Source of the DNA: an uncultured Acetobacteraceae bacterium
GTDB lineage: Bacteria > Pseudomonadota > Alphaproteobacteria > Acetobacterales > Acetobacteraceae
Direction of reading: 5' to 3'
Assembly (NCBI GenBank): GCA_964249675.1
Contig: CAXUCZ010000001.1
Span: 1 to 59,358, forward strand
Length of the DNA: 59,358 bases
Shown here one piece after another: positions 15,323 through 36,681 of the stretch. Position 1 is the first letter of the stretch. The number at the start of each line of letters is the position of its first letter. The notes below the pieces were generated by a model. The model was not told the DNA's origin, did not search any database, and saw only the letters and a list, made by a program, of their open reading frames with translations. A program made the translations under genes and the position numbers.

Positions 15323-15338
15323 AATCACTACGGTAGGG
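15323..15338 (+). promoter_or_regulatory. class I element AATCACTACGGTAGGG
   Basis: Intergenic after TerL, 50 nt upstream of ATG 15389. Confidence 0.75.
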
Positions 15339-15388
15339 ATAAGCATGTCCTTCCGGCCCTCAAGATAGTGCCCTGGTCAGCCCGACTC

Positions 15389-15808
15389 ATGGCACGTCGC
15401 GACAGCATGCTCGCCGGCGCAATCCAGCATCGCGACCGCATGCGCGACAGCCGCCTCGTGCGCGCGCTACTGCATGTGCCCTACGTGCCGGACGTGCTGT
15501 TCGGCGGCACGCTGATGGCCTGGGGCCTGGCCGACATCATCAACCCCGAAGGCACGCTGCACAGCCACGGCTGGGGCGCGATCCGTGATGCGGTCACCGG
15601 CGCCGGTCTGATCTGCTTCGTGTTCGGCCTGGTCCACTTCATCGCCGGCTTCCTGCGCGTGAAGTTCGTCTACCGCGTGCCGGCCTGCCTGCTCGCCGCC
15701 TGGGGCTTCGCCTTCCTCGCCAACGCCTCGGGGTCGCAGACCGGGCATATCGGCTACGGCGGCTACGTGGTCGGCGAGATCCTGATCTGCCTGCGCCTAC
15801 TCGGATAG
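15389..15808 (+). CDS. multi-pass membrane protein
   Basis: ATG 15389 (MARRDSML...). About 4 hydrophobic helices. The listed start at 15296 would run through the element. Confidence 0.6.
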   Translation: MARRDSMLAGAIQHRDRMRDSRLVRALLHVPYVPDVLFGGTLMAWGLADIINPEGTLHSHGWGAIRDAVTGAGLICFVFGLVHFIAGFLRVKFVYRVPACLLAAWGFAFLANASGSQTGHIGYGGYVVGEILICLRLLG

Positions 15809-15814
15809 ACCACC

Positions 15815-16231
15815 ATGCTGCCCGCGCTCCAGGCCATCATGTCCCTGCTCAACGGCTGGACACCGCTCACCCAGAGCGGAGCATGGATCGTGGGCGCCGG
15901 CCTGCTGATCATCTACCTGAACAACAGCCGTTTCGCCGAGAAGAAGTCGCAGGCCGAGTTCAACGACACCCGGCGCAAGGACCTCATGGAGGAAGTCATC
16001 CATGAGCAGGATCGCCGCACCGCGTCGGACGCGCGCGGCGATCGCTGGCGCTCGGCGGCGCGCTGGTGGAACGCCAAGGCGCACGACGAGCGGCTGGACC
16101 GCATCACCGACCGGGTGAGCATCCAGGAGCTGCTGGCTAGCATTCCCGGCGCACCGCGGCTGGTGCTGCCCAACATGCTGCCGCTGCCGCGCATGGTCGA
16201 GGAAGTGGCCGAGACGGAGGGACACCTGTGA
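15815..16231 (+). CDS. N-terminally anchored membrane protein
   Basis: 138 aa. TM segment SGAWIVGAGLLIIYL followed by a charged domain. Confidence 0.6.
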   Translation: MLPALQAIMSLLNGWTPLTQSGAWIVGAGLLIIYLNNSRFAEKKSQAEFNDTRRKDLMEEVIHEQDRRTASDARGDRWRSAARWWNAKAHDERLDRITDRVSIQELLASIPGAPRLVLPNMLPLPRMVEEVAETEGHL

Positions 16232-16461
16232 ACGGCAAGAGGCCCGGCAAGCCGCTGCCCGTCAAAGGCGGGCCGCGCATGACCTACGCGCGCAGGTTCA
16301 CCGCCGAGCGCGCCGCCGGCAAGCTGGGCATCAAGTTCCCCGACGTGCGGCTGGACGACGACAAGCGGTTCTATATCGCCCAGCTCGAGCCGGACTATGT
16401 CGACCCGCAGCACGAGATCCCGTTCACCAGCCCGCGCGGCAGGCCGCGGCTGGACCCCTAG
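16228..16461 (+). CDS. hypothetical protein
   Basis: 77 aa, GTGA-coupled. Its stop overlaps the stop of convergent gene 16458..16661. Confidence 0.5.
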   Translation: MNGKRPGKPLPVKGGPRMTYARRFTAERAAGKLGIKFPDVRLDDDKRFYIAQLEPDYVDPQHEIPFTSPRGRPRLDP

Positions 16462-16661
16462 AGTTCGCGCCGCGGAGCCAGCCAGTCCCGGCCATAGCGC
16501 TTCCTCACCAGCCGCTCGCGGCGTGCCTGGGTGTTCTTGAACCACCGCGCCAGCAGCGCCCAGATCACGCACACCACCAGGGCTGCCAGCACCCAGCATC
16601 CCGCAAGCGTCAGTCCCGCCAGCTCGAGCCAGTCCACGTTCGCCCCCTCGTCCCAGTTCAT
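16458..16661 (-). CDS. small membrane protein
   Basis: 67 aa. TM segment LTLAGCWVLAALVVCVIWALLA. Confidence 0.55.
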   Translation of the reverse strand: MNWDEGANVDWLELAGLTLAGCWVLAALVVCVIWALLARWFKNTQARRERLVRKRYGRDWLAPRREL

Positions 16662-17323
16662 GTCCGCCTCATCTTCGTGCCGGTAATCAGGTAGTAGCGA
16701 CGACGCACGCTCTCGGCCTCGTCGGTTACGGTCTCCTCGAAGCCATCCACCCCGCAGCCGCGAAACCCGGCATGGTTCATGGCGGCGAGGATGGCGTCGG
16801 GGTGATGGTGGTGGGCGTAGGCGAACGACTGGCCGCTGGTGTTGGACGCGATCCCCAGCACCAGCTCGCCGCCAATCTGCAGAACCCGGTGCAGCTCGAA
16901 CATCGCCGATCCCAGCTCATCCCAGTAGTAGGCGACATTCAGCGCGACTGCGATGTCATAGCTGCAGTCAGGCACGCAGAGCTTGCGCGCGTCGCCGCTG
17001 CGCACGCGGAAGCGCCCTGCCAGATCCAGGCCGGCAACACCCCACCGATGCACCTTCTCGGCAGCCTGGCTCACCATCGTCGTGCTCAGATCGAACCCGG
17101 TGTAGCTGTTGATAAGCGCGACGCGCATCTGCTGCATGAAGCCGCCGCCGCCGAACCCGACCTCGAGCACGTCGGCGCCGGGCGGGATCATCGCGGCTAC
17201 CTCGCGCTGCACGCGGTCGTTCAGCCGGTCCATCAGCCTGGCCACCGTGATGCCGAGCGCACCCGACGGGCAGGCCCCGTGCGCCTGGAAGTCCGCCCGG
17301 TCGATGTGAGTGTGGCGTGGCAT
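16658..17323 (-). CDS. class I SAM-dependent methyltransferase
   Basis: Motif I VLEVGFGGGGF. ATG 17323 behind GAAGG (the listed start is CTG). No DPPY/NPPY or PCQ DNA-MTase motif seen. Confidence 0.7.
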   Translation of the reverse strand: MPRHTHIDRADFQAHGACPSGALGITVARLMDRLNDRVQREVAAMIPPGADVLEVGFGGGGFMQQMRVALINSYTGFDLSTTMVSQAAEKVHRWGVAGLDLAGRFRVRSGDARKLCVPDCSYDIAVALNVAYYWDELGSAMFELHRVLQIGGELVLGIASNTSGQSFAYAHHHHPDAILAAMNHAGFRGCGVDGFEETVTDEAESVRRRYYLITGTKMRRT

Positions 17324-17346
17324 CGGACCTTCAGGCACCCTGTCGT

Positions 17347-17360
17347 ATAATACGTATTAT
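17347..17360. promoter_or_regulatory. perfect 14-bp AT palindrome ATAATACGTATTAT
   Basis: Overlaps the stop of the Tad2-like gene, just upstream of the MTase start. Contains TATAAT/TATTAT-like hexamers on both strands. Confidence 0.4.
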
Positions 17361-17599
17361 GCCAACTCGGCCTGCTCCAGGAACGTCCAGTCGGTCGCCA
17401 GCATGTCGGTCTGGCTGGCCAGCCACGGCACCAGCTCGCCCTGCGCCGTGCGCATGTAGATGTAGGCCAGCGACATCTTGGAATGCGCATCGGGCACCTG
17501 CAGAGCGAGCCACATGCCCTTGCCGTTCCACCCCTCGCGGGCTAACCGGCTACCCTGCTTGAGCTGCCGGATCGCCCAGCCGAAATCGCATTCACCCAT
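17357..17599 (-). CDS. tad2: DUF2829 / Tad2-like protein (anti-Thoeris sponge candidate)
   Basis: FGWAIRQLKQG..REGWNGKGMW..YIYMRTAQGELVPWLASQTDMLATDW matches the DUF2829 signature from memory. ATG 17599 behind AGGAG. Confidence 0.7.
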   Translation of the reverse strand: MGECDFGWAIRQLKQGSRLAREGWNGKGMWLALQVPDAHSKMSLAYIYMRTAQGELVPWLASQTDMLATDWTFLEQAELA

Positions 17600-17692
17600 C
17601 GAAATCTCCTGTGCTTCTGTATGCACGACAACGCTGATTATCGTGCCTACAATGCCTTCACGCTCGTTTACCGCGCCTTAGTAGCGGGTGCC

Positions 17693-17968
17693 TTAATGCC
17701 GGCTGCCGGGGTCGATCTCCGACGTCACGCTATCGCCCCCACGGTCCAGGCACACCGCTGCCGCCTGATACCCGGTCTGCATGGTGACGGAGGCACACAC
17801 CTCCGCCATGTGATGCAGGCAGTTCTCGCAGCCACACCAGAAGATGCCGAAGTGCTCGAGCATGAACTCCCGACCGTCGGGATGCCGCAGCACGATGACG
17901 AAGCCCTGGCCTACCGGATCCATCCACGGGATCTCGGGCAGCTCTGCCGGCGGCGTCACCGCGTTCAT
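17693..17968 (-). CDS. hypothetical Cys/His-containing protein
   Basis: 91 aa with a WCGCENCLHH cluster. Confidence 0.55.
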   Translation of the reverse strand: MNAVTPPAELPEIPWMDPVGQGFVIVLRHPDGREFMLEHFGIFWCGCENCLHHMAEVCASVTMQTGYQAAAVCLDRGGDSVTSEIDPGSRH

Positions 17969-18159: not shown

Positions 18160-18515
18160 TTCAGCTCGCCGGCAATACCCGAGTAGCCAGCCTGGTCGAC
18201 GAAGTGATCGCGCACCGGCGTGCCGCAGTTGGCACGCGCAACCTTCATCAGCACCATCATCTGCGCCACGTCGCGACCGGTGAGCGCCACCCGCAGCACC
18301 CCGTTGCTGTCGCGCAGATAGGTCCCCCAGAAGTCGGCAATCATCTCGAACGACCGTTCCTTATCGCCGTGCGTGGCGTTGCGGTCGCCCTCTACGATCT
18401 TGGCTGCCTCGTGCAGGATGTCCGCCGCCACGGTGCCGGACTTGGCTGGAGGCTTCGCGGACACGCTAGCGCTAGCGCTTCCGGTTCCGAGCGGACCTAG
18501 ATCAAACACGCTCAT
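18156..18515 (-). CDS. DUF6378-like conserved phage protein
   Basis: GDRNATHGD..SFEMIADFWGTYL..DVAQMMVLMKVAR..D..DQAGYSG pattern recalled from small phage proteins. Confidence 0.6.
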   Translation of the reverse strand: MSVFDLGPLGTGSASASVSAKPPAKSGTVAADILHEAAKIVEGDRNATHGDKERSFEMIADFWGTYLRDSNGVLRVALTGRDVAQMMVLMKVARANCGTPVRDHFVDQAGYSGIAGELK

Positions 18516-18793
18516 CCGTGCACCATGGCATCTTGCAGCAACTGGTTCAGCACGCCGACCGGTAGCTTCATCTTCAGGCGCGACGCGAGCGACAGGAACA
18601 GCAGGCGCGACGCATAGGTGTTGCGATGTTCGGCGTCGTAGGCTTCGACGATGCTGATCGCGAGGTCATGCACGTGGCGGGCGTTCATGCCCTCCTGGCT
18701 GTCATCGCCCGGCCAGTGCAGCCCGTCGGCGTCGATCTCGTTGTCCGCGCCGTGCTCGCGGTAGCTACTCGGTGCCGTCTCGCTCACGACCAT
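18512..18793 (-). CDS. hypothetical protein
   Basis: Internal ATG 18793 (MVVSETAPSS...). The listed longer form has an R-rich N-extension. Confidence 0.5.
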   Translation of the reverse strand: MVVSETAPSSYREHGADNEIDADGLHWPGDDSQEGMNARHVHDLAISIVEAYDAEHRNTYASRLLFLSLASRLKMKLPVGVLNQLLQDAMVHG

Positions 18794-19139
18794 CCTCGCC
18801 CAGCAGTTGCTTGTAGAAGGCCCTCGCCACGGAACGAGGCAGCGCCTTGCCGGTGGCTGCCGCCAGCTTCGCCGCCGCGTCGATGCGCTCGCTAATTGGT
18901 GCCACGGGAGCCGGTGGCGGGGCAACATCTTTCACGACGCTAGGGATTGTTGCCAATGGCTCGGGGACCAGTCCGCGTGGTTCGTTGCGCTCGACCTGGA
19001 TCGCCGTGATGATCGCCCGGCCCAACCACTCGCCCTGGCTCATCTGGTTGCGCGCCGCAGCATTGATCGCCGCGTTGCGGGCTTCGGGGGAGACCCCCTT
19101 GATGGTCCACGGCTTGATCTGGTCTGTCTCGTCGGCCAT
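18765..19139 (-). CDS. small putative DNA-binding / regulatory protein (RHH-like guess)
   Basis: N-terminus KPWTIKGVSPEARNAAINAAARNQMSQGEWLGRAI. GAGGAGG SD. First gene of the minus-strand accessory operon. Confidence 0.45.
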   Translation of the reverse strand: MADETDQIKPWTIKGVSPEARNAAINAAARNQMSQGEWLGRAIITAIQVERNEPRGLVPEPLATIPSVVKDVAPPPAPVAPISERIDAAAKLAAATGKALPRSVARAFYKQLLGEDGRERDGTE

Positions 19140-19764: not shown

Positions 19765-20187
19765 TTACGCGGCGACGGTCTCCCCGATGCGGCGGAAGGG
19801 CTTGGCGAGCTGCTGCAGCGCCGGCCCCGGCCTGTAGAACATGCGCCGCACGATGGTCTCCACCCGATTGCGAGGAGCCGTGCTGGGCGCGAGCTGGTGT
19901 TCAATCGTGATCATGTTGCGCATGAGCGCGACGTTGATCGCGTCGTCCAAAGTAAAGACCGAGCAACCGACTGCTCGCGATACCGCGGTTCGATGCGGAT
20001 ACGGTTCGTTTATCCAATCTAGCTGACATATCAGAGCAAGCAAGCGCGCAGCCTTTATGGGCGGACGTCGCGAGTCATAGTGAGTGACGATGTAGTCCTC
20101 GATTTGATCCGCCAAGTCTTGGTTTATAGTAGGCAGATTAACCTCGCTTAATTGTCTTGTAGTATCCCTGAGTGTTGCATTGGGCAT
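19765..20187 (-). CDS. putative HTH DNA-binding protein in a low-GC islet
   Basis: ATG 20187 behind AGGAG (MPNATLRDTT...). HTH-like RTAVSRAVGCSVFTLDDAINVAL. Confidence 0.5.
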   Translation of the reverse strand: MPNATLRDTTRQLSEVNLPTINQDLADQIEDYIVTHYDSRRPPIKAARLLALICQLDWINEPYPHRTAVSRAVGCSVFTLDDAINVALMRNMITIEHQLAPSTAPRNRVETIVRRMFYRPGPALQQLAKPFRRIGETVAA

Positions 20188-20375: not shown

Positions 20376-20397
20376 TTCATGTCAGCGTCTAGACAAA

Positions 20398-20410
20398 CAC
20401 TACAGTAGTA
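20398..20410. promoter_or_regulatory. palindromic copy CACTACAGTAGTA
   Basis: Intergenic, 13 bp from copy 20423..20438. Orientation ambiguous. Confidence 0.6.
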
Positions 20411-20422
20411 TATTGGCGTGAT

Positions 20423-20438
20423 GCCTACCGTAGTGAAT
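20423..20438 (-). promoter_or_regulatory. class I element ATTCACTACGGTAGGC
   Basis: Intergenic between 20445..20903 and the terminator. Confidence 0.7.
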
Positions 20439-20444
20439 GTTTAA

Positions 20445-20903
20445 TCACAGCAGTGTCGGAACCTCACCGGCTTCGATTGCATCCAGGATGTCGCTCTTTC
20501 CTGGGTTGGCGTGCAGGTCGAGCATCAGCAGCACGGCCTTGGCCAGGTCGTTCACACTCGCATAGCTGAGGCCACGCGAGGCGAAGTCGTGCGCCATGCC
20601 GAGGCGCGGATCGGGGGACTGCGGCGCCTCGAGATCGGTGGGTGCCGCGGGGGCGTTCGGAACCAGCGCGGAGGCGGCGGTGGTGGCTTCCCCGAGTGCG
20701 GGCTGGTTGGGGGTGGCGGACTGGGTGGTCTGCTCGGTCGGACCTGCATTGGCTTCCTCGATCTGCTTGGCAGTCAGCGGGGTCGCGGGTGCATCGGAGT
20801 GCCCGAGCTTGGGGTTGGCGTCGCCCGGCTTGGCGACGGGTTGCGCGGTGGCGGCTGCCTGGTTGTCCTCGGCGTCGCCGTTCTGGTGCTTCTTGGTGGC
20901 CAT
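20445..20903 (-). CDS. hypothetical acidic/low-complexity protein
   Basis: ATG 20903 (MATKKHQNGDAED...) behind AAGGAA. The listed longer start runs through the element. Confidence 0.6.
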   Translation of the reverse strand: MATKKHQNGDAEDNQAAATAQPVAKPGDANPKLGHSDAPATPLTAKQIEEANAGPTEQTTQSATPNQPALGEATTAASALVPNAPAAPTDLEAPQSPDPRLGMAHDFASRGLSYASVNDLAKAVLLMLDLHANPGKSDILDAIEAGEVPTLL

Positions 20904-20945
20904 GATCTGCGGGGTTCCTTGCCGGTGATCGGCGGTCCTTTGTAG

Positions 20946-20961
20946 CACTACCGTAGTGATT
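20946..20961 (-). promoter_or_regulatory. class I element AATCACTACGGTAGTG
   Basis: 42 nt upstream of ATG 20903. Divergent partner of 21106..21121. Confidence 0.75.
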
Positions 20962-21105
20962 GTCGAAAGAGTTTCAAAATTGAAGCTCGTGGGAGCGACG
21001 AACCTAACGGCGGGCGGCGGGTGGGGGGGCCTGGGCCAGCACTCCCCCGCGGGTGCGGGGCCGCGCGCACATGCACGCAGGTTCATCTCTGCAACGTCGG
21101 CAATC

Positions 21106-21121
21106 AATCACTACCGTCGTG
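21106..21121 (+). promoter_or_regulatory. element variant AATCACTACCGTCGTG
   Basis: Heads the ORF-poor leader 21122..21382. Confidence 0.65.
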
Positions 21122-21382
21122 GTTTAGACCAAGCCACTAGGTCAGGAGCCGCCTACCACGCTCCGCTCCATCAGGACCGCGAAGCACCGCGGATCAGGCT
21201 AGTGCAAGTCCAGCTAGAGCGAGACCCGGTGATCCCGAGGCGGCTGGATGATGAGGATGCGGGGTAGCAACCGCTCTTGCCGACTACAGTCGGGGTAATG
21301 TTATTCCCCGCACCAACAATCCCGCAAGGGATTGCTTGGTAAGCCACGCACCCACAACCCGCGTGGCTTACGGAGCGATCTT
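21122..21382 (+). ncRNA. candidate structured leader / ncRNA
   Basis: No credible ORF. Hairpins: CCGCG-aagcac-CGCGG, GGAGC..GCTCC, GCGGGG..(CCGACtacaGTCGG)..CCCCGC, AUCCC-GCAA-GGGAU, AAGCCACGC..GCGTGGCTT. Possible long-range AGCCGCC/GGCGGCT pairing. Confidence 0.35.
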
Positions 21383-21562
21383 ATGAAGCTCGGTGAGAAA
21401 TACCCAGACTCCACCACGCTGATTGCCAGCCAATACACTCTGGCAAACAACCACAGCTACAAGAGCCCACAGCGTGCCCAGGCGCCAGGCTTCCAGAAGT
21501 CCGGCGTGACCATCACCAACAAAGGCGACATCGGCCATGCTGTATCTGATCGGTATCGTTAA
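21383..21562 (+). CDS. small hypothetical protein
   Basis: ATG 21383 behind GGAG. GC-rich third positions favour this frame over the antisense 21368..21592. Confidence 0.4.
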   Translation: MKLGEKYPDSTTLIASQYTLANNHSYKSPQRAQAPGFQKSGVTITNKGDIGHAVSDRYR

Positions 21563-21629: not shown

Positions 21630-21645
21630 AATCACTACAGTAGGG
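21630..21645 (+). promoter_or_regulatory. class I element AATCACTACAGTAGGG
   Basis: 12 nt upstream of ATG 21658. Confidence 0.8.
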
Positions 21646-21657: not shown

Positions 21658-22533
21658 ATGGCCAAGAAGTCGCCGGGTCTCGACGAGGCCCGCGTTACCG
21701 CGATCGCCGATCGCATCGCCGCCACGTTCGGTGCGGTGCTCAGCGCCAAGGACGATGCCGACACGGCACGCCAGGCCGCGCAGGACGCCGCACAGGGCAA
21801 CGTGGGCACCCGAGAGGGAGTATTGGAAGCTTTGGCGCAGGAAGCCGTCCAGGGCGCCTGGAGCGAGGCCGAGATACGCGTCGCTTCCAAGCTCAGCGTG
21901 TCGCGGCGCAACGACCAGTCCACCGCCAAGACGCTCGGCACCTTCGTGTCCGAGGCGCGCCGCGTGATGCAGCCCAGCGTGGCGCCGCACATGTCCGAGT
22001 TCATACGACTGCGTGATGCAGTGTGGGATTTCGAGGAACAGCTGCCCAAGGACCAACGTTCGGTTCGCGGCACCTATGCTCGCAAATACCACGCACTGTT
22101 GTCAGGGCTTGTCGGCGCTCACGAGGCCGGCACCTGGATCACCACGGTCGACGGTTTCGTGGCTCATGCAGTGGCCAATCATCCGAGCAAGTCGGCATCC
22201 AAGGTCGCGGCGCGCATCGAGAGCATCCGTGACGAGCTGGCTGCGATAGCGGCTGGTTTCCCGAGCCCGGATCTCGAGGCGGCGATCACGCATCTGGCGT
22301 GTGTGACCGAAGCGGTCCTGGTGGCATCGAGCACCGGATCTGGCAACGGATCTGGCAACGAACGGCCAGAAACACCGGTCGTTGCCACAAGAGAATCACC
22401 GGTCCCATCAACTACAGTGCCGGAGATTCTCAGCTACAACCATCAGGAACCGCAAGTGCCTGAAATCGCACAGTTCGTTCCCGAGATGGATGGCTGGGAT
22501 GAGGTGCTGAGCAGCCTCGCGGTGGCTGCCTGA
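21658..22533 (+). CDS. hypothetical early protein
   Basis: 291 aa, followed by a strong terminator and the iteron region. Replication or partition role is speculative. Confidence 0.75.
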   Translation: MAKKSPGLDEARVTAIADRIAATFGAVLSAKDDADTARQAAQDAAQGNVGTREGVLEALAQEAVQGAWSEAEIRVASKLSVSRRNDQSTAKTLGTFVSEARRVMQPSVAPHMSEFIRLRDAVWDFEEQLPKDQRSVRGTYARKYHALLSGLVGAHEAGTWITTVDGFVAHAVANHPSKSASKVAARIESIRDELAAIAAGFPSPDLEAAITHLACVTEAVLVASSTGSGNGSGNERPETPVVATRESPVPSTTVPEILSYNHQEPQVPEIAQFVPEMDGWDEVLSSLAVAA

Positions 22534-22552
22534 TACGGTTTGTTACTGCCAT

Positions 22553-22590
22553 TTGGCGGCTGGGTGTATCTCAGCCGCCAAGTTTCTTTT
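22553..22590 (+). terminator. rho-independent terminator
   Basis: 10-bp stem TTGGCGGCTG / CAGCCGCCAA, 9-nt loop, then GTTTCTTTTCT. Confidence 0.8.
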
Positions 22591-22672
22591 CTACAACAGT
22601 GCGTAATTGTGTAAGTCATTGATATATATAACGTTAGCAAGAACTTATCCATCTAGATGCAACGATCTCGGC

Positions 22673-22684
22673 GCGTTGCTAGAT
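22673..22684 (+). repeat. iteron GCGTTGCTAGAT
   Basis: Exact 12-mer, copy 1. Confidence 0.85.
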
Positions 22685-22734
22685 GGAGGCCCGATATAAC
22701 ATATACATATCAATAACTTATAACTTAACTAGTA

Positions 22735-22754
22735 ATCTAGCAATCTAGCAATGC
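22735..22754 (-). repeat. inverted double iteron GCATTGCTAGATTGCTAGAT
   Basis: Reverse complement matches 22848..22865 at 17 of 18 positions. Confidence 0.85.
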
Positions 22755-22847
22755 GTTCTGGAGGATGGACGCAAAGTTTTTGAACCCCGCAGCGGGGCGG
22801 ACGCGCGCACGCGCCGCCACGCCGTTTCGTGGTCTTATCCTGGAAAC

Positions 22848-22865
22848 GCGTTGCTAGATTGCTAG
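22848..22865 (+). repeat. double iteron GCGTTGCTAGATTGCTAG
   Basis: Exact 12-mer plus an overlapping second TTGCTAG. Confidence 0.85.
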
Positions 22866-22907
22866 TTGTGTTAAGCCCATGAAACTAAACACTTTTTCCA
22901 AAAAAAC

Positions 22908-22919
22908 GCGTTGCTAGAT
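22908..22919 (+). repeat. iteron GCGTTGCTAGAT
   Basis: Exact 12-mer, copy 3, preceded by AAAAAAC as at 22848. Confidence 0.85.
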
Positions 22920-23003
22920 GACTGCTAACCACATTACTAGTTAGTGAATTGTCACAGCAATATACCTATGTATCAAAAACTATATCGAATAATAGGTAAA
23001 CCC

Positions 23004-23487: not shown

Positions 23488-23503
23488 AATCACTACCGTA
23501 GGG
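23488..23503 (+). promoter_or_regulatory. class I element AATCACTACCGTAGGG
   Basis: 9 nt upstream of ATG 23513. Confidence 0.8.
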
Positions 23504-23765: not shown

Positions 23766-23781
23766 ATCCACTACCGTAGGG
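23766..23781 (+). promoter_or_regulatory. class I element ATCCACTACCGTAGGG
   Basis: 9 nt upstream of ATG 23791. Confidence 0.8.
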
Positions 23782-24298: not shown

Positions 24299-24314
24299 AT
24301 TCACTACTGTAGGG
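24299..24314 (+). promoter_or_regulatory. class I element ATTCACTACTGTAGGG
   Basis: 10 nt upstream of ATG 24325. Shares the 20-mer GCTACCATTCACTACTGTAG with 24876..24895. Confidence 0.8.
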
Positions 24315-24880: not shown

Positions 24881-24896
24881 ATTCACTACTGTAGTG
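24881..24896 (+). promoter_or_regulatory. class I element ATTCACTACTGTAGTG
   Basis: 35 nt upstream of ATG 24932. Confidence 0.75.
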
Positions 24897-24931: not shown

Positions 24932-26101
24932 ATGGATCTCACTTCCGCCAAGCGCGTCATGCTGCGCACCCACGTCGCGGCGCTGCACGGTGCCCATCGT
25001 GCCAACGCGATCGAGATGGTCGCCGGTCCCGGCATCGGCAAGTCCGACAGCGTGCGCCAGTCATGCGCCGAGCTGGCTGCGTTCATCAACGAGCCGGTCG
25101 GTCTCGTGACTTTCATGCTGGCCACCGTGTCGAGCGTCGACATCCGCGGCTTCATGCTGCCGATCAAGAACGCATCCGGCGGCATGGACAGTCACTTCAG
25201 CGTGCCGCCGTGGTATCCCACGCGGGCCAACGTCACCGTGTTCACGCCCGACGGCACCACCCACCACATGGGCAGCTTCACCGGCGACGTGCCGCGTGTC
25301 GGCGTGCTGTTCCTCGACGAGTTCGCGCAGGCCGAGGACGACGTCAAGAAGCCTGCCGCCGAGCTGCTGCTGCATGGCTGCGTCGGCACCACCAGCCTGC
25401 CCGTCGGCTGGCGCGTGCTCGCAGCGTCCAACCGCATGTCGGATCGCTCCGGTGTCATGCGTGCGATGGCGTTCATCACCAACCGGCGCAACGAGATCAA
25501 GGTCGATGCGTCACTACCGTCGTGGATATCCTGGGCCAACGCGCAGCCCGACGCGACGCGTCCGCACTATCTGACACTGTCGTTCGCGCAGAAGAACCCT
25601 GGGCTCGTGTTCCGCGACGCCGTGCCGCCCGGCTCGGATCCGTTCTGCACGCCGCGCACGCTGTGCCTGCTCGATGCCGACCTCAAGGCGTTGCGCAGCC
25701 CCGAGGAAACTGCTGCTGATCGCATGCCGACCGATGCGATCGCGCGCGAGGTGGCGCGTGGCTGGATCGGCGAGGGCGAGGCGGCGCAGTTCTTCACGCA
25801 TATAAAATATGCCGACGAGCTGCCCGAGATCGACGACCTGGTCGCGGCACCGACCAAGGCCAAGCTGCCGCCCAACAAAGATGCGCAGATGGTCTGCGGC
25901 TACATGCTGGCGCACCACGTCAACGACAAGACTGCCGGTCCGATCATGCAGTATCTCGGTCGCCTGCACATCGAGATGCAGGTGCTCGCGGTCAACGCGA
26001 TCATGTCGCACAAGCCGACGCCGCGCGCCGTGCTCGAGCACCCGCTGTTCAAGGCGTGGCTGATCGCCAACAAGGATCTGCTCATGGCCTCGCGGTCGTG
26101 A
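24932..26101 (+). CDS. MoxR/CbbQ-type AAA+ ATPase
   Basis: Walker A GPGIGKSD, Walker B VLFLDEF. 389 aa. Confidence 0.75.
   Translation: MDLTSAKRVMLRTHVAALHGAHRANAIEMVAGPGIGKSDSVRQSCAELAAFINEPVGLVTFMLATVSSVDIRGFMLPIKNASGGMDSHFSVPPWYPTRANVTVFTPDGTTHHMGSFTGDVPRVGVLFLDEFAQAEDDVKKPAAELLLHGCVGTTSLPVGWRVLAASNRMSDRSGVMRAMAFITNRRNEIKVDASLPSWISWANAQPDATRPHYLTLSFAQKNPGLVFRDAVPPGSDPFCTPRTLCLLDADLKALRSPEETAADRMPTDAIAREVARGWIGEGEAAQFFTHIKYADELPEIDDLVAAPTKAKLPPNKDAQMVCGYMLAHHVNDKTAGPIMQYLGRLHIEMQVLAVNAIMSHKPTPRAVLEHPLFKAWLIANKDLLMASRS
25512..25524 (+). repeat. coding variant CACTACCGTCGTG
   Basis: Sense in the ATPase gene (TCA CTA CCG TCG TGG = S-L-P-S-W). TAG here would be an in-frame stop. Confidence 0.8.
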
Positions 26102-26139: not shown

Positions 26140-26155
26140 AATCACTACCGTAGGG
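26140..26155 (+). promoter_or_regulatory. class I element AATCACTACCGTAGGG
   Basis: 103 nt upstream of ATG 26259. A possible 19-codon TM mini-ORF (26179..26238, MAGLTGILAILLVVLLVTR) lies between. Confidence 0.8.
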
Positions 26156-26591: not shown

Positions 26592-26607
26592 AATCACTAC
26601 AGTAGGG
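26592..26607 (+). promoter_or_regulatory. class I element AATCACTACAGTAGGG
   Basis: 15 nt upstream of ATG 26623. Confidence 0.8.
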
Positions 26608-29521: not shown

Positions 29522-29537
29522 AATCACTACCGTAGGG
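29522..29537 (+). promoter_or_regulatory. class I element AATCACTACCGTAGGG
   Basis: 11 nt upstream of ATG 29549. Heads the polymerase operon. Confidence 0.8.
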
Positions 29538-30295: not shown

Positions 30296-32227
30296 GTGCT
30301 GGTGACGATAGATTTCGAGACCGCCTACTCCACCGAGTATAGCCTGTCGCGCATGAGCGAGGTGGGCTACATTCTCGATCCGCGCTTCGAGATCATCATG
30401 TGCTCGATTAAGATCGACAACGGCGCGACCGAGATCCATATCGGTTTCAGTGCCGTCGCCGCGCGGTTCAAGCAGATCGACTGGTCGCGAGTCGCGGTGC
30501 TGTCGCACAACATGCGGTTCGACGGCGCGATCCTGTTCTGGATCTTCGGCATCACGCCCAAAGCCTATTGCTGCACCCTGAGCATGGCGCGTGCACTCAC
30601 GCACAACGCAGCCGGCGGCAGTTCGCTGGCCAAGGTCGCGAAGTATCTCGGCCTACCGGCCAAGGGCACCGCCGTAGTCAACGCGCGGGGCAAGTGGCTG
30701 CGCGATTTCTCGGCATCGGAACTTCAAGAATACGCAGACTATTGCGTGCACGATGCAGACCTGTGCCACCAGATATTCCAGCGTTTCGTCGCGGTGTTTC
30801 CGCGCTCTGAACTGTCCGTCGTCGACATCACCATGCGGATGTTCATCGAGCCGCAGACGCGCCTGAACATGGAGGTGCTGGCGGTCCACCTCAACGAGGT
30901 GCGTGCGCGCAAGCAGGCGATCATGGCGAAGGTGGCCGTGATCGACAAATCGGTGTTCTCCAGCAACCAGAAGTTCGCGGCCCTGCTCGAGGCACACGGT
31001 GTTGAGGTGCCGATGAAGGAAAGCCCGGCCACGGGAGAGCTGATCCCCGCACTCGCCCTCGGCGACCGCGAGTTCAAGGAACTGCGCGACGACGACAGCC
31101 AGCCGCTGGATGTGCAGCTGCTGCTGGCCGCGCGTGTCGGCGCCAAGAGCACGCTCGAGGAGACCCGCACCGACAAGATGCTGGCGCTCTCACTACGGTC
31201 GTGGCCGGACGGCACCACCGGCTGGTGTCCGGTGCCGCTGAAATACTACGGCGCGCACACCGGACGGTTCTCGGGCGACGGCGGGTTCAACTTCCAGAAT
31301 TTCAAGCGGCACTCGCGCATCAAGGAAGCGATCGAGGCGCCCGCCGGCATGGCACTGGTGCACCGTGACAGCTCGCAGATCGAGGCCCGCATGGTGGCCT
31401 GGATGTCTGGCTGCACGCACCTGCTGCTGGCGTTCGCCGAGGGGCGCGACATCTACAGCGAGTTCGCGACCGCGGTCTATGGCCGCATCATCACGCGTGC
31501 CGACAAGTCCGACCGGTTCGTCGGCAAGACTTCTATCCTGGGGCTCGGCTACGGCATGGGCGCGGAACGCTTCATGCAGACCCTGTTCATCGGGGCAGGT
31601 GGCATCTCGCGACGCATCGACGAGCAGGAGGCCGTCCGCATCGTTGACCTGTATCGGGCGACCTACCCCGAGATCCCTACGCTCTGGCGGCGTGCCAACG
31701 CCATGCTGCACCACATGGTCATGGCCGCGCGCGAGGCGCGCACACCCCAGGGCATGAACCCGCCGCCGAGCCCGGTGCCGACCCCAGGTCCTGCGCAGCT
31801 CTTTCCGGCGATCGAGTGGAGCGGGGACGCCCTGTGGCTGCCCAACGGGCTGGCCATACAATATCCAGGGCTGGACTACGACACCACCACGCAGGCGAAC
31901 GGCTTGCACGGACACGAGATCCGCTACACGAAGTTCAAGGGGCGGACCAAGCTGTTCGGCGGCAAGGCCGTCGAGAATGTCAGTCAGGCGCTGTCGCGCA
32001 TCGTGATCACCGACGCAATGCGAAGGATCAAGGCGGACACTGGATACTCGCCTTTCCTGACCACGCATGATAGCTTGGACTATTGCGTGCCCGAGGGTGA
32101 CGCAGCGGCGATGAATACCCTCCTGGAAGCCGAGTTCGCGGTGCGCCCGTCCTGGGCGCCGACCCTGCCGCTGGCATCCGAAGGCGGGTATGGCAAGCGT
32201 CTGACCGACGCAGAACTGGGAGTATGA
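30296..32227 (+). CDS. polA: family A DNA polymerase with 3'-5' exonuclease
   Basis: Exo motifs IDFET, HNMRFDG, YCVHDAD. Pol motif A DSSQIEAR, motif B RFVGKTSILGLGYG, motif C THDS. Confidence 0.85.
   Translation: MLVTIDFETAYSTEYSLSRMSEVGYILDPRFEIIMCSIKIDNGATEIHIGFSAVAARFKQIDWSRVAVLSHNMRFDGAILFWIFGITPKAYCCTLSMARALTHNAAGGSSLAKVAKYLGLPAKGTAVVNARGKWLRDFSASELQEYADYCVHDADLCHQIFQRFVAVFPRSELSVVDITMRMFIEPQTRLNMEVLAVHLNEVRARKQAIMAKVAVIDKSVFSSNQKFAALLEAHGVEVPMKESPATGELIPALALGDREFKELRDDDSQPLDVQLLLAARVGAKSTLEETRTDKMLALSLRSWPDGTTGWCPVPLKYYGAHTGRFSGDGGFNFQNFKRHSRIKEAIEAPAGMALVHRDSSQIEARMVAWMSGCTHLLLAFAEGRDIYSEFATAVYGRIITRADKSDRFVGKTSILGLGYGMGAERFMQTLFIGAGGISRRIDEQEAVRIVDLYRATYPEIPTLWRRANAMLHHMVMAAREARTPQGMNPPPSPVPTPGPAQLFPAIEWSGDALWLPNGLAIQYPGLDYDTTTQANGLHGHEIRYTKFKGRTKLFGGKAVENVSQALSRIVITDAMRRIKADTGYSPFLTTHDSLDYCVPEGDAAAMNTLLEAEFAVRPSWAPTLPLASEGGYGKRLTDAELGV
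31191..31203 (+). repeat. coding variant CACTACGGTCGTG
   Basis: Sense in polA (TCA CTA CGG TCG TGG = S-L-R-S-W), same frame as copy 25512. Confidence 0.8.
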
Positions 32228-32243: not shown

Positions 32244-32259
32244 CCCGACGGTAGTGATC
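32244..32259 (-). promoter_or_regulatory. reversed intergenic copy GATCACTACCGTCGGG
   Basis: Between polA and the nuclease gene, pointing against both. Immediately followed by GCCGAATGATC. Confidence 0.6.
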
Positions 32260-32275
32260 AGCCGAATGATCAACC

Positions 32276-32947: not shown

Positions 32948-32948
32948 A

Positions 32949-33230
32949 ATGATGAAGAACGTGAGGCACAGCGACAGCCAGCTTCGCGAAACGATCTGGG
33001 CGCAGTTGCCGCGTGCGGTAAGCGACCGGCTGTATCTGCTGTTGCGCACGGACGCCTATCGGATCAAGCCGCCGGGTGTCACGTTCACCTGGGCGCTCGG
33101 GCTCAGTTTAGACGTGGTGGTGCCTCTTAGCGACCCCGTCGAGTGCGTGTTGGAGCGCGATCCTGTTACGCAGGAATACACACGACTACCGGACGATATA
33201 GTGTCTCTGCTTTGCCTGACAGTAGTGTAG
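32949..33230 (+). CDS. hypothetical protein (low-GC)
   Basis: ATG 32949 (MMKNVRHSDSQ...). Confidence 0.5.
   Translation: MMKNVRHSDSQLRETIWAQLPRAVSDRLYLLLRTDAYRIKPPGVTFTWALGLSLDVVVPLSDPVECVLERDPVTQEYTRLPDDIVSLLCLTVV
33215..33227 (+). promoter_or_regulatory. degenerate element CCTGACAGTAGTG
   Basis: 13 nt upstream of ATG 33241. Two mismatches in the left half. Confidence 0.35.
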
Positions 33231-33240
33231 ATAATACATC

Positions 33241-33555
33241 ATGGCGGCGACAACACCCGAAGGTAGAATTAAGAACCAGGTCAAGAAAGTTCTTGGTAAT
33301 TACAGCAACCTTTGGTTTAATATGCCCGTTCCCACCGGATACGGCACACCCATGCTCGACTTTATTGGGTGCTATTGCGGACGCGGGTTCGCCATCGAGA
33401 CCAAGGTGCCGGGCAAGAAGCCGACGGCGCGCCAGGCCGCGATGATCGAGGACATGAGTGACGCCGGCATGCTGGTGCTGGTGATCGACGGGCCGCTCGG
33501 GCTCGAGACGCTGCGACTTCTACTCGACAACATGCGTGACATTCAGGAGGGCTGA
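33241..33555 (+). CDS. VRR-NUC domain nuclease
   Basis: D...E-x-K arrangement (MLDFIGCYCGRGFAIETK), about 100 aa. Confidence 0.7.
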   Translation: MAATTPEGRIKNQVKKVLGNYSNLWFNMPVPTGYGTPMLDFIGCYCGRGFAIETKVPGKKPTARQAAMIEDMSDAGMLVLVIDGPLGLETLRLLLDNMRDIQEG

Positions 33556-33556
33556 C

Positions 33557-35128: not shown

Positions 35129-35343
35129 TGTCTGACCTGTCCGCCGGCGACATGGTGATCACGCCCAAAGGCTTAATCGGCCTGCTATCGCACGTGACGC
35201 CGGCTGGCATGGCCGCTATCCGGTTCGGCCAGAACGTCCAGTTGCACTACCACAAGGCGCATCTTGTGCGCCGTGCTACGCGGGCGGAAGTGGACGCCAG
35301 CTCGCTGCGCGGCGTTGGCTGCAATCAAGCGAACGATCCGTGA
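35128..35343 (+). CDS. hypothetical protein
   Basis: TGATG-coupled, 71 aa. Confidence 0.5.
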   Translation: MSDLSAGDMVITPKGLIGLLSHVTPAGMAAIRFGQNVQLHYHKAHLVRRATRAEVDASSLRGVGCNQANDP

Positions 35344-35365
35344 CTCGTATGAAAGTGCAAAGGTC

Positions 35366-35545
35366 ATGACGGAAACCACGATCTCCGTTAGCGGCGTATG
35401 GCTGCGTCGTGTTGGAGACAATGCTGTCGTCGCGGTCGAGATCGACGGTCGCTGGCGCGACGTGATCATAGAGCGCAGCGAGGGCAATTTCAGCCACATT
35501 GTCGAGGTGAGCGGCATCGCTAAGGCAACAGAGGCGAAGCTATGA
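35366..35545 (+). CDS. hypothetical protein
   Basis: ATG 35366 (MTETTISVSGVW...). Confidence 0.45.
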   Translation: MTETTISVSGVWLRRVGDNAVVAVEIDGRWRDVIIERSEGNFSHIVEVSGIAKATEAKL

Positions 35546-35763
35546 CCGAGGACGCGCAAACCACCGACCGCGCTACTCACGCTCAAGGAGTTGCGGACGC
35601 ACTCCGCGCCCGAGCCGGGCGATCGCGTGCCCGCGTGGAAAAGCAACAAGCGTCGGCATATTTCAGCGACGAAGTTAGGACTGGCTATCTTACCGAAGCC
35701 GATCGCGATGATGCGGCGGCTTTCTACATCGAACTTGGGCTCGCGCGGGGAGTGCTGGCATGA
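35542..35763 (+). CDS. hypothetical protein
   Basis: ATGA-coupled, 73 aa. Confidence 0.5.
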   Translation: MTEDAQTTDRATHAQGVADALRARAGRSRARVEKQQASAYFSDEVRTGYLTEADRDDAAAFYIELGLARGVLA

Positions 35764-36125
35764 GCACCGATCGAACTGAAACCACCCCGCCAGAAGGCTG
35801 GATCGTGCGAGAGACAAACATCGGGTGCGATGATTGCGATGAGACTGGCAGTTGGGACGGGAGGCCGTGTGTGTCGTGTAACGGAACGGCCTTGTGCAAT
35901 GGCGATGGCCTATGTTGGGGGCCGCCTCTCGATCCAGCTAAAACCACCACCTTGGACCTCGATGCCATGCGTCGGGCGTGCTTCGCGGCAGATCAAACGG
36001 TGAGCCTGTCTGCAATCGCCGTGCTGGATGTCATTGATGAGGTCGTCCGACTGCGGAAGGCTCTCGGACAGCTTCAAGTCACACTCTACTCGGCAAATGA
36101 GATCGCGGAGAAAGCACTCTCGTGA
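35760..36125 (+). CDS. Cys-rich (zinc-ribbon-like) protein
   Basis: CDDCDETGSWDGRPCVSCNGTALCNGDGLC cluster. ATGA-coupled. Confidence 0.55.
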   Translation: MSTDRTETTPPEGWIVRETNIGCDDCDETGSWDGRPCVSCNGTALCNGDGLCWGPPLDPAKTTTLDLDAMRRACFAADQTVSLSAIAVLDVIDEVVRLRKALGQLQVTLYSANEIAEKALS

Positions 36126-36172
36126 CAAGCGACAAAACCACAATTCCCGAGCAAACATAGGAGTATATTCCC

Positions 36173-36655
36173 ATGAGTGTTTCCACTACCGTCGGGCAAA
36201 CCAGCATGGCCGACGCCATGTCGGCGCAACCCATCAACCACACGCCGCCGGCCTTCCGGGTCCGACCGGCTGGTCTGACCGTCGAGAAAGCAGTCGCCAA
36301 GTATGTCGAGCTGCGCGACAAGGTTGCGGCAATCAAGAAGCAGCAGGTCGAAGCGCTCGCGCCGTTCAACGCCGCAATGAGTGTGCTCGAGAACTGGATG
36401 CTGGACGATCTCAATCAATCCGGTGCAGAAAGTATGCGGACTACCGCAGGCACCTGCTACAAGGCGAAGCGGACTACGGCGAAGGTCCACGCCTGGAGCG
36501 AGACGTTGCAATTCATCCTCGAGAAACAAGCCTACGAGCTGCTGGAAGCCAGGGTATCCAAGACAGCGGCGCAGGCTATACTGGAGGAGACGGGGCAACC
36601 GGTCCCTGGAGTCGCTATAGAGACCGAAACCACAGTGAACGTGCGCCGCGCGTAG
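36173..36655 (+). CDS. hypothetical coiled-coil protein (recombination/replication accessory?)
   Basis: 160-aa ORF. A class II element sits in codons 4-8. Confidence 0.65.
   Translation: MSVSTTVGQTSMADAMSAQPINHTPPAFRVRPAGLTVEKAVAKYVELRDKVAAIKKQQVEALAPFNAAMSVLENWMLDDLNQSGAESMRTTAGTCYKAKRTTAKVHAWSETLQFILEKQAYELLEARVSKTAAQAILEETGQPVPGVAIETETTVNVRRA
36184..36196 (+). repeat. class II element CACTACCGTCGGG (exact)
   Basis: Sense, encodes T-T-V-G, 9 nt after the ATG. Confidence 0.9.
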
Positions 36656-36665
36656 CGCATCGTTC

Positions 36666-36681
36666 AATCACTACCGTAGTA
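36666..36681 (+). promoter_or_regulatory. class I element AATCACTACCGTAGTA
   Basis: 23 nt upstream of ATG 36705. Confidence 0.75.

Follow-up and report, generated by a model that had tools for sequence, protein, structure and literature searches.

The C1 operators of phage P1 and the conserved inverted repeats of phage phiC31 are scattered at early promoters and are bound by a repressor of the phage itself. On the plasmid RK2, a replicon of about 60 kb, some copies of the KorB operator (OB) lie at promoters and others at distal or intragenic positions, and T4-type phages reportedly carry PeSL elements, 'mobile regulatory cassettes' attributed to Arbiol et al. (2010), that flank each small early open reading frame (ORF). 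In this IncP plasmid OB has the sequence TTTAGCSGCTAAA, a palindrome of 13 bp around a central S base (PMC11790492). In Cluster A mycobacteriophages, tens of near-identical 13-bp stoperators of the L5 gp71 type occupy short intergenic as well as intragenic positions in a genome of 50–60 kb; their consensus diverges between relatives, and one small repressor silences genome-wide (PMC9283540, PMC6550527). The start-associated sequences (SAS) of Cluster K mycobacteriophages are conserved 13-bp words that lie a few base pairs upstream of many start codons and contain the ribosome-binding site (PMC3203893). Here we describe an element with likenesses to each of these systems, a palindrome with the core CACTAC-N-GTAG(G/T)G that recurs throughout a stretch of 59,358 nucleotides, referred to as the window, from the assembly of an uncultured Acetobacteraceae bacterium (GCA_964249675.1, contig CAXUCZ010000001.1).

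The repeat family is genuine and far from random; across a large clade of phages its positions are conserved while its sequence varies. It most likely forms a genome-wide operator network, for which the regulator is a candidate only. In the explanation that we favour, with a probability of roughly 45%, the element is the operator of a phage-encoded dimeric regulator that binds the palindrome as duplex DNA, both where it overlaps compact promoters and 5' untranslated regions (5'UTRs) and at dispersed sites. Each site of the early and middle blocks would belong to a compact unit of expression; in the best case a -10-like hexamer directly adjoins the palindrome. The palindrome would cover the predicted transcription start and the 5'UTR, its 3' arm GUAGGG would be used as the Shine-Dalgarno sequence, and the bound protein would occlude or roadblock RNA polymerase at nearly every unit. 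Copies inside long genes would be dispersed auxiliary or roadblock sites that leave no site-free stretch above 4 kb, and the gene-start and dispersed sites together would provide genome-wide control of the stoperator, P1 C1 or KorB type. What the sequences themselves show is the anatomy and statistics of the sites, their lack of a hairpin and of a fixed orientation, their synteny and the way the palindrome co-varies among relatives; protein binding, repression, the positions of promoters and the identity of the reader are what we infer. The regulator may bring about lysogeny-type silencing or a temporal switch in the lytic cycle.

A palindromic repeat family throughout a phage genome

Bases 1–55 of the window are identical to bases 59304–59358. 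With this exact overlap of 55 bp between its ends, the window is a circular assembly and represents a complete phage genome of 59,303 bp with a G+C content of 65%. A preliminary description, made from the letters of the sequence, had listed eleven near-identical plus-strand copies of the element, and all are present (at 15323, 21106, 21630, 23488, 23766, 24299, 24881, 26140, 26592, 29522 and 36666). The 16-mer AATCACTACNGTAGGG has seven exact copies genome-wide and, at up to two mismatches, 19 matches against 0.02 expected from 100 dinucleotide shuffles, in agreement with the earlier judgement that this is a phage-specific signal too conserved for a host sigma70 promoter or a Shine-Dalgarno sequence. 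The degenerate family C[AC]C[TG]AC-N-GT[AC]G[GT]G comprises 34 sites, where about 0.2 are expected under order-2 and order-3 Markov models, and each of its sub-classes is enriched; the enrichment survives both the Markov and the shuffle backgrounds. Five near-consensus extras bring the total from 34 strict family sites to 39. Roughly half of the 39 sites are held by non-coding DNA, which makes up about 10% of the genome, and about 19 copies are intragenic or antisense, many of them antisense. Among the matches listed for the exact 16-mer in the IMG/VR and JGI metagenomes there were only single chance matches.

The position matrix of the 17 strong copies confirmed the palindromic core, free central base and 5' AAT of the preliminary description. 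CAC-TAC and GT-G are invariant, AAT is conserved together with A at -3 and C at -1, positions 17–21 are A/T-rich, and a TG at -26/-25 is only faint. The full site is a 13- to 19-bp palindrome, (AAT)CACTAC-N-GTAGTG(ATT). One half-site must be near CACTAC, and the other tolerates A or C at core position 10 and G or T at core position 12. At its full 19 bp the element reads AATCACTAC-N-GTAGTGATT, which fits the size of the pseudo-palindromic operators of the MarR family (approximately 16–20 bp).

The family extends beyond the plus-strand early and replication block to which it had been assigned, with minus-strand copies at 7444, 12648, 20423, 20946, 43903 and 56924 that head minus-strand genes. 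The earlier statement that copies are intergenic holds for the eleven listed above but not for the family, whose CACTACCGTCGGG class (nine exact copies, plus CACTACGGTCGGG at 49721) lies, with its relatives, within genes. Four copies of CACTAC-S-GTCGTG belong to the same intragenic class, the members of which occupy all three codon phases and both orientations. Nor does every site point the same way as the gene behind it, since the copy at 32244 (-) is inverted in the 5'UTR of a plus-strand gene and the intragenic copies run both ways. A twelfth, degenerate copy (CACTACTGTCAGG, 33215..33227, 13 nt before the ATG at 33241) had rightly been noted; its better half (CACTAC) reads on the minus strand. 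Genome-wide occurrence, as proposed earlier, is borne out by 34–39 sites with no gap above 4 kb. Between the 34 strict sites no gap exceeds 3940 bp, whereas in simulations the largest gap averaged 7167 bp (P ~0.001), and with a coefficient of variation (CV) of 0.58 (P ~0.0004) their spacing is more even than random.

The cores fold with only -0.6 to -1.8 kcal/mol, either as RNA or as DNA. When half-sites are sorted into types A to D, the mismatched combinations A+B, A+C and A+D predominate (A+C at ten sites and A+D at four), the paired form CACGAC-N-GTCGTG (D+D) is absent, and no compensatory change is seen. A hairpin of RNA or single-stranded DNA in the window was accordingly rejected, the cores being unstable and the pairing not maintained. 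Orientation could be compared in the scaffold-like gene 8437–9504 (-), where the site at 9328..9340 (-; CACTACCGTCGGG) occupies the same alignment columns as CCCGACGGTAGTG in a related phage sequence, L149 (JAIQCS010040205.1, a 32.6-kb NCBI metagenome contig found via the early protein P0002), yet is inverted; in the same gene of another relative, L024, a perfect palindrome lies a few nucleotides away from the equivalent position. This inversion at a syntenic position means that selection maintains the site there independently of strand and of the encoded peptide. The intragenic class as a whole argues against a promoter, an RNA signal or a protein-coding repeat and points to a factor that reads duplex DNA.

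Relatives carry extended palindromes, GGCACTACSGTAGTGCC in L024 and CAATCACTACCGTAGTGATTG in L058, in which symmetry spans 17–21 bp, and from these perfect forms it follows that the ancestral shape is a dyad. Asymmetry and co-orientation with transcription are plausibly secondary and would have two causes. Gene-start copies point with the gene because the GGG arm doubles as a ribosome-binding site, and for the intragenic copies a drift of the tolerated positions to G/C under codon and G+C pressure (A to C at core position 10, S at the centre) fits better. Avoidance of stop codons as the cause of the GTCGGG variant was rejected, as only one of five same-sense sites needs it; the A/C alternation is also found in intergenic copies of the relative L125. 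A likeness of the motifs to the 3' domain of 16S rRNA (CCGTAGGG, AGGTAAC) was judged coincidental, given that the central base is free and that the Rhizobium 16S sequence differs from the motif of the Rhizobium phage RHph_TM27A described below.

Sites at gene starts, in control regions and within genes

The distance from GGG to the start codon is 4–16 nt in nine copies, rather than 9–15 nt in six as had been counted. These are the exact 16-mers at 7444..7459 (-; AATCACTACGGTAGGG; 4 nt to the ATG of 7074–7439 (-), just downstream of the major capsid gene), 15323..15338 (+; 5 nt to the ATG at 15344, after the large terminase gene), 21630..21645 (+; 12 nt to the ATG of the gene for a 291-aa protein), 23488..23503 (+; 9 nt to the ATG at 23513), 26592..26607 (+; 15 nt to the ATG at 26623) and 29522..29537 (+; followed by GGGGAGTTCTT and then the ATG at 29549), together with ATCCACTACCGTAGGG at 23766..23781 (+; 9 nt to the ATG at 23791), ATTCACTACTGTAGGG at 24299..24314 (+; 10 nt to the ATG at 24325) and AACCACTACCGTAGGG at 56924..56939 (-; 12 nt to the ATG of a 58-aa basic ORF, 56735–56911 (-)). 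In three copies the distance is 35–41 nt, namely AATCACTACGGTAGTG at 20946..20961 (-), ATTCACTACTGTAGTG at 24881..24896 (+; 35 nt to the ATG of a 389-aa ATPase gene) and AAACACTACGGTAGGG at 43903..43918 (-; 38 nt to the ATG of 42350–43864 (-)). The copy AATCACTACCGTAGTA at 36666..36681 (+) stands upstream of the AGGGAG Shine-Dalgarno sequence of gene 36699/36723–37817 and ends about 23 nt from the start chosen in the preliminary description or 41 nt from that in our gene list. The gene behind the exact 16-mer at 26140..26155 (+) probably begins about 103 nt further on, and at 21106 the distance is about 262 nt. Two further copies close to a start are the inverted GATCACTACCGTCGGG at 32244..32259 (-), 19 nt before its plus-strand gene, and the CACTACCGTCGGG copy at 36184..36196 (+), 9 nt from a likely start at 36206, which shares 81% identity over 27 nt with the copy at 23767 (repeat family D5).

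About 12 of the 39 sites end 4–19 nt ahead of a start codon, with GGG in the Shine-Dalgarno position, and the best-conserved extended form of 16 to 19 bp is found only at gene starts. Units with a separate Shine-Dalgarno sequence (29522, 36666 and 43903) use GGGAG(TTCTT). Such positions would suit a signal at the RNA level, that is, a translational operator or start-associated sequence in the 5'UTR that a phage RNA-binding protein or the ribosome would read and that sets the rate or timing of translation for each cistron of a polycistronic mRNA, with a hairpin that sequesters the Shine-Dalgarno sequence in relatives. We consider this improbable. RHph_TM27A, in which about 14 of 61 palindromes lie 3–7 nt before annotated start codons with a GAGGT Shine-Dalgarno sequence in the 3' arm and a folding energy of -6.6 kcal/mol, speaks for it, as does a central spacing that varies like a hairpin loop. 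The window hairpin, however, is negligible and its pairs are not kept; about half of the sites are intragenic, some running with the mRNA and some against it, and at one syntenic position the site is inverted. Several copies, moreover, are 35–260 nt from any start codon, and in the relatives L125 and L104 the element is distinct from the Shine-Dalgarno sequence. A model of leaderless mRNAs was also rejected, since an ATG 4–16 nt from GGG is too variable.

Four sites cluster in the divergent early control region (20395–21121). CACTACAGTAGTA at 20398..20410 (+) lies between gene 20445–20906 and a bidirectional terminator and is syntenic with a site at 2750 of L149, where the flank CATCACnnCAATATACTAC is conserved; ATTCACTACGGTAGGC at 20423..20438 (-) is 25 bp from it, centre to centre. 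The leftward early operon is headed by the copy at 20946, 39 nt from the ATG of a 153-aa gene and syntenic with L149 2167, and the rightward operon by AATCACTACCGTCGTG at 21106..21121 (+). The latter is followed by an untranslated leader of about 260 nt (21122–21383) ahead of a 59-aa ORF; it may be a structured or regulatory RNA, and had no Rfam match. Rfam and tRNA scans gave no matches.

At the portal operon, AACCACTACATTAGGG at 12648..12663 (-) lies in the 5' leader and is syntenic with L149 9105. A sigma70-like promoter, TTGCTA-N17-TAGAAC at 12661..12689 (-), is predicted directly beside it, and hexamers of the form TTGCTA-N17-TA[GA][AG]AC are kept in the window and in L149 (TTGCTA-N17-TAAGAC), directly abutting the palindrome in both, with a diverged spacer. 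To judge from this conservation, the portal site is the clearest case of a putative host-type promoter with the palindrome as its start region. A second site, CACTACCGTCGGG at 12759..12771 (-), lies about 62 nt into the divergent plus-strand gene and is syntenic with L149 8996.

The promoter context includes a point that weighs against the operator reading. Host sigma70 promoters are not enriched in the block, and neither a fixed -35 nor a consistent -10 was found beside most copies. The arrangement of an operator at a promoter is documented for one or two sites only, and elsewhere a roadblock would have to be at work. The same context would be explained if the element were itself a phage promoter, at which an early phage factor, sigma-like or an appropriator, makes host RNA polymerase start within the element or at its 3' end, around GGG, so that nearly every early and middle gene is its own transcription unit. 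This explanation, which we regard as unlikely, accounts for the near-invariance over 16–19 bp, for the co-orientation with the gene at all start-proximal copies and for the lack of enriched sigma70-type promoters; the asymmetric 5' flank (A-3, C-1, AAT) resembles a weak -10, and there is the weak TG at -26/-25. The order terminator, element, leader at two units of L125/L126 and an endonuclease insertion in L149 that brings its own element copy and leader also favour it. It is opposed by the palindromic core, by the roughly 19 intragenic copies, many of them antisense, by the inverted syntenic site, and by the nine copies in which a start codon 4–16 nt past GGG would put the transcription start inside the element. 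No RNA polymerase or recognisable sigma was found in the scanned ORFs, the giant virion protein falls among the polyvalent internal virion proteins, and the model of the 291-aa first early protein is uninformative.

The remaining copies are distributed over the virion and replication genes. Proceeding from the left end of the window, CACTACCGTCGGG is found at 93..105 (-), near the 5' end of the minus-strand gene that spans the window ends and aligned, amid diverged flanks, with the perfect palindrome GGCACTACCGTAGTGCTG at L024 17918; at 1148..1160 (+), antisense within gene 851–1498 (-); and at 5055..5067 (-), within gene 4310–5437 (-). The perfect palindrome CACTACCGTAGTG (3347..3359, without orientation) lies in the small gene 3269–3454 (-), and the weak symmetric variant CCCGACCGTCGGG (17869..17881, likewise without orientation), which is individually uncertain, in 17693–17968 (-). 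Replication genes contain CACTACCGTCGTG at 25512..25524 (+, ATPase gene), CACTACGGTCGTG at 31191..31203 (+, DNA polymerase gene) and AATCACGACGGTAGTG at 39417..39432 (+, primase-helicase gene), and a weak variant, CACGACCGTCGGG, is located 75 nt before the primase-helicase start at 37751..37763 (-). A weak variant CACGACGGTCGGG at 41498..41510 (-) is in a convergent region. Among the long genes, two strict internal sites each occur in the 2412-aa gene (CACTACCGTCGGG at 47517..47529 (-), deep within it, and CACTACGGTCGGG at 49721..49733 (+), antisense) and in the 1069-aa gene (CACTACCGTCGGG at 52711..52723 (+), antisense, and the weak variant CCCTACCGTCGGG at 54138..54150 (-)). The last two weak variants are a second CACGACCGTCGGG at 55972..55984 (+), within 55865–56356 (-), and CACGACGGTAGGG at 57354..57366 (-), within 56988–57515 (-).

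Just after a strong terminator (22551–22583) is an AT-rich non-coding region (22590–22960; 58% G+C locally) with iterons (word AACGCGTTGCTAGAT, of the form (A)ACGCGTTGCTAGAT), direct at 22669, 22844 and 22904 and inverted at 22737–22757, and a 19-nt inverted repeat at 22612/22702. This region may be where replication begins, or else an array that serves a second regulator. An 11-mer, GCCGAATGATC, has six copies, at 23427, 24839, 27437, 29926 and 32261 (+) and at 44572 (-), all co-oriented with transcription. Two of them span a stop codon (GCC GAA TGA) that is followed by a T-run, two are within genes, one comes right after the stop of the 2412-aa gene and one is in the 5'UTR beside site 32244.

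The distribution of the palindromes has features that would also be produced by a signal in DNA transactions, such as loading or priming by the primase-helicase, nicking, or parS-like segregation or condensation of an episomal prophage, in which case intergenic placement would arise only because a 13-bp word is cheapest to keep there. The even spacing without a gap above 4 kb and the orientation-independent sites conserved within long genes are in line with it, and an episomal lifestyle would fit relatives of about 60 kb that are found whole in assemblies of Bradyrhizobium isolates. The strong concentration at gene starts and in the divergent control region and the restriction of the best-conserved 16- to 19-bp form to gene starts are not, and ParB, KorB or nickase domains were not found in the ORFs scanned. 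The separate iteron array at 22.6–22.95 kb is a better origin candidate. We judge this explanation to have a low probability.

Related phages and candidate readers

The window phage has a podovirus-type virion module with a portal/adaptor protein (PHROG 332), a major head protein, internal virion proteins, a protein of 1069 aa that carries a lytic transglycosylase domain and another of 2412 aa, and a replication module with a family A DNA polymerase, an SNF2 helicase, a PD-(D/E)XK nuclease, a DUF927 primase-helicase and a DUF2201 VWA-like protein. No near-identical genome was found among GenBank phages. RHph_TM27A is syntenic with the window, with 55% identity in the portal protein, and phages of the HMO-2011 type are distant relatives. 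Relatives of the capsid protein are very common in IMG/VR (>578 loci) and occur in bacterial assemblies as well: two Bradyrhizobium isolates have contigs of about 60 kb that comprise the whole phage, and in other bacteria copies are embedded within long contigs. IMG/VR and JGI data also include contigs of roughly 60 kb, among them Ga0065705_10001790, Ga0376683_0000231 and UViG_3300025931_000006.

The element is kept at syntenic positions in relatives, and window sites are syntenic with sites of L024 or L149 amid diverged flanks. L149 has both site classes, at places that correspond to the window copies 20946, 20398, 12759, 12648 and 9328. In L104 a CTACCGTAG site lies about 30 nt upstream of the homologue of the gene at 26623. 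Further away the architecture is retained but the word itself changes. L125 has 12 copies of TTCCCTAC-NN-GT[AC]GGGAA; in L077, L078 and L151 TATAGG-NN-CTATAGG occupies three syntenic places, one of them ahead of the portal gene; L062 has TTACTAC-N1-2-GTAGTAA; and L080 and L152 have CACTAC-N1-2-GTAGTG. The equivalent element of L125 and L126 precedes the ATG by 20–45 nt, in two units directly after an intrinsic terminator, and in L125 and L104 it is separate from the Shine-Dalgarno sequence. The TM27A clade carries GTTACCT-N3-4-AGGTAAC, which in RHph_TM27A itself (L001+L002, MN988461) is present in 61 copies against 1.5 expected, spaced with a CV of 0.71 (P 0.003); the palindromes not at start codons are intragenic and occur only in frames that avoid TAA. 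No repeat annotation is given in the MN988461 record. Words that are particular to each phage but stand at conserved positions would be expected if a protein and its operator co-evolve, and they argue against a conserved host factor. The central spacing, however, varies by 1 bp within single relatives (1 or 2 nt in L062, L080 and L152, 3 or 4 nt in TM27A), which is unusual for a rigid dimer and counts against the operator reading.

In L149 a GIY-YIG homing-endonuclease gene (1385–2225) has been inserted just upstream of the 153-aa early gene, and ahead of the inserted gene are a palindrome copy of its own and a leader of similar kind. Since the endonuclease gene comes with its own copy, the element behaves as a component of a portable expression cassette would.

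As the preliminary description had held, the factor that reads the element can be named only in terms of candidates. The foremost is a 140-aa winged-helix protein, encoded at 19765..20187 (-) within the leftward early operon and the only early protein that turned up in many relatives of the clade. In L149, where the motif is the same, its counterpart shares 66% identity and has a putative recognition helix that is almost unchanged; 45 homologues, none of them annotated, come from metagenome assemblies and phage-like contigs. Its AF2 model (pLDDT 82) is a winged helix with flanking helices, for which the top PDB matches are the MarR-family repressors MexR, AdcR, MepR and SlyA (probability 0.97–1.0, E 0.01–0.05, TM ~0.4); the model also matches DnaD-N and TFE, and the protein has no Pfam MarR match. 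Its viral matches are generic winged-helix proteins, repressors and replisome organisers among them. MarR proteins are homodimers that bind pseudo-palindromes at promoters. From the modelled fold, the MarR-like protein 19765–20187 is a candidate reader of the element, although we think the assignment less likely than not. Two further points tell against the favoured explanation here. The correspondence between recognition helix and motif across relatives is ambiguous, as very different helices accompany the same ACTAC core and similar helices accompany different motifs. The fold is generic and matches replisome organisers of the DnaD type, so the iterons at 22.6–22.95 kb might be its target instead.

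An alternative candidate is the 153-aa early protein encoded at 20445..20906 (-), which has sites on both flanks. It is 59% identical in L149 overall and about 75% in its C-terminal third, and has no family match. The region 18512–19139 (-) contains two overlapping ORFs, of which the 124-aa ORF 18765–19139 has a ribbon-helix-helix-like N-terminus (KPWTIKGVSPEARNAAINAAARNQMSQGEWLGRAI). The product of this ORF had been put forward as a reader and was demoted, since it matches no family and lacks a counterpart in L149, which of the relatives with this motif is the closest. For the first early protein, of 291 aa (21658–22533), there was no family match, and its single-sequence AF2 model reached a pLDDT of 46. 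In the same leftward operon as the winged-helix gene, 17357–17626 (-) encodes an 89-aa protein with a Tad2-like (anti-Thoeris) domain (PF11195, E 1e-25).

Neither an RNA polymerase nor a recognisable sigma was found in the large and early ORFs, which were scanned against Pfam, PHROGs and NCBIfam. All ORFs of at least 440 aa are otherwise identified except 42350–43864 (504 aa, no match). The 2412-aa virion protein (44583–51821 (-)) has a low-complexity N-terminal half and an invariant HExxH at residues 1258–1262, and direct searches with it gave no Pfam or PDB match and no polymerase motifs; a homologue search with its C-terminal half yielded nothing useful. It belongs to a family annotated 'large polyvalent protein', with 1873 clusters at 50% identity. 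LPD39 is present in 11 of 16 sampled homologues, some of which have ART-PolyVal, pyrophosphatase or SNF2 domains, and the sole significant PDB match of the family profile is an internal virion protein (9sfn_G). A cryptic RNA polymerase in this protein was rejected, the library search and the profile both identifying a polyvalent internal virion protein. These results bear on a hairpin promoter of the N4 type, read by an RNA polymerase that is delivered with the virion. On paper CACTA/CNG/TAGTG has the N4 geometry, a 5-bp stem with a 3-nt loop, and a very large virion protein is encoded; that protein has no polymerase signal, however, the hairpins are unstable and uncompensated, and the sites are genome-wide rather than limited to early genes, which leaves this explanation largely refuted.

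With respect to lifestyle, neither an integrase nor a partition system nor a CI/Cro pair was found among the scanned ORFs; this counts among the points against the favoured explanation and makes a lysogeny-type repressor role for the proposed regulator conjectural. Whole relatives of about 60 kb were seen as contigs in the two Bradyrhizobium assemblies (Rp7b, NZ_PSRT01000042.1, and sp. 139, NZ_JADPKS010000067.1), and in a Pseudolabrys metagenome-assembled genome a 465-kb contig has relatives twice, 61.9 kb apart. The whole contigs and the double copy are hints of episomal or tandem-integrated prophage states in the family.

A wider proposal can be put forward tentatively. Throughout a large and mostly uncultured clade of soil and marine podophages, marked by the capsid relatives (>578 IMG/VR loci) and the 1873 clusters of giant virion proteins, each member might maintain a fast-evolving palindromic grid of 30–60 sites, no more than about 4 kb apart even in essential genes and fused to the ribosome-binding sites of early genes, that one small winged-helix protein reads as a silencing or immunity device. 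Such a grid would be a convergent, symmetric counterpart of the stoperator and KorB networks that operates without a CI/Cro switch or an integrase, and the phages may persist as episomes.

Comparison with described systems

A literature search gave nothing of this kind for this phage group. If the sites are operators of one regulator, they would constitute a genome-wide network of one protein and many sites in alphaproteobacterial podophages, for which we know of no precedent, and of a design not reported for stoperators or KorB, in that a dyad is fused to the ribosome-binding site and intragenic copies are evenly spaced. It would open a direct way to study how an abundant but scarcely characterised soil clade (relatives of RHph_TM27A and the HMO-2011 type) runs its gene expression and whether it is carried as a lysogen or an episome, and would hint at how immunity specificities diversify, each relative having its own palindrome. 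The operator and its repressor would also be a compact, portable and orthogonal pair for the genetics of Bradyrhizobium and Rhizobium. If the element were a factor-dependent promoter instead, it would represent an unrecognised route by which host RNA polymerase is redirected.

The preliminary description had considered three known phenomena, the first being promoters of the T7 group. The likeness consists of some 18 conserved base pairs that end in TA..GGGA and head many genes. The comparison was not supported, as no RNA polymerase gene was detected in the scanned ORFs of the window, the element is palindromic and lies within genes in both orientations, and it is inverted at a syntenic position. 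The second, stoperators, proved apt in part. Like those of Cluster A, the sites of the window phage are many (34–39) and dispersed, about half of them intragenic, with a phage-specific consensus and even spacing that leaves no gap above 4 kb. Stoperators, however, are asymmetric, bound by a monomer and oriented with transcription, whereas the window sites are dyads rather than polar and are free in orientation, as the inverted syntenic site illustrates. The candidate reader has a predicted MarR-like winged-helix fold that is not gp71-like, and the virus is a podovirus of an alphaproteobacterium. The third, start-associated sequences, describes the position of about 12 of the 39 sites and leaves some 19 intragenic or antisense sites unexplained; the SAS of Cluster K are asymmetric and, as described, confined to gene starts, whereas half of the window family is intragenic or antisense and its core is a dyad. 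In neither system is the reader established.

Similarities to KorB OB are found in the short palindrome and in its distribution over one replicon, at promoters as well as at distal and intragenic positions. KorB is a ParB-family CTPase clamp, and no ParB-like domain was found in the window ORFs scanned; the window sites are also about three times more numerous than RK2 OB, and many overlap ribosome-binding sites. P1 and phiC31 differ in being demonstrably temperate, with identified repressors, and the P1 operators are asymmetric; to our knowledge neither phage places an operator over a Shine-Dalgarno sequence or has evenly spaced intragenic copies. The endonuclease gene inserted in L149, which brings or acquires its own element copy, recalls the PeSL cassettes. 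A PeSL, however, combines a host-type early promoter with a stem-loop, whereas the window element has no evident host-type promoter and has copies in late genes too. Because it lacks the asymmetry and orientation of stoperators, the ParB-type reader of KorB and the restriction of SAS to gene starts, the element is not a member of those families. By analogy, its closest functional counterparts would be the Cluster A stoperators, KorB OB, the P1 C1 operators and the phiC31 repeats, and its closest positional counterpart the SAS of Cluster K; in its working it would be most like a symmetric variant of these, fused to a ribosome-binding site.

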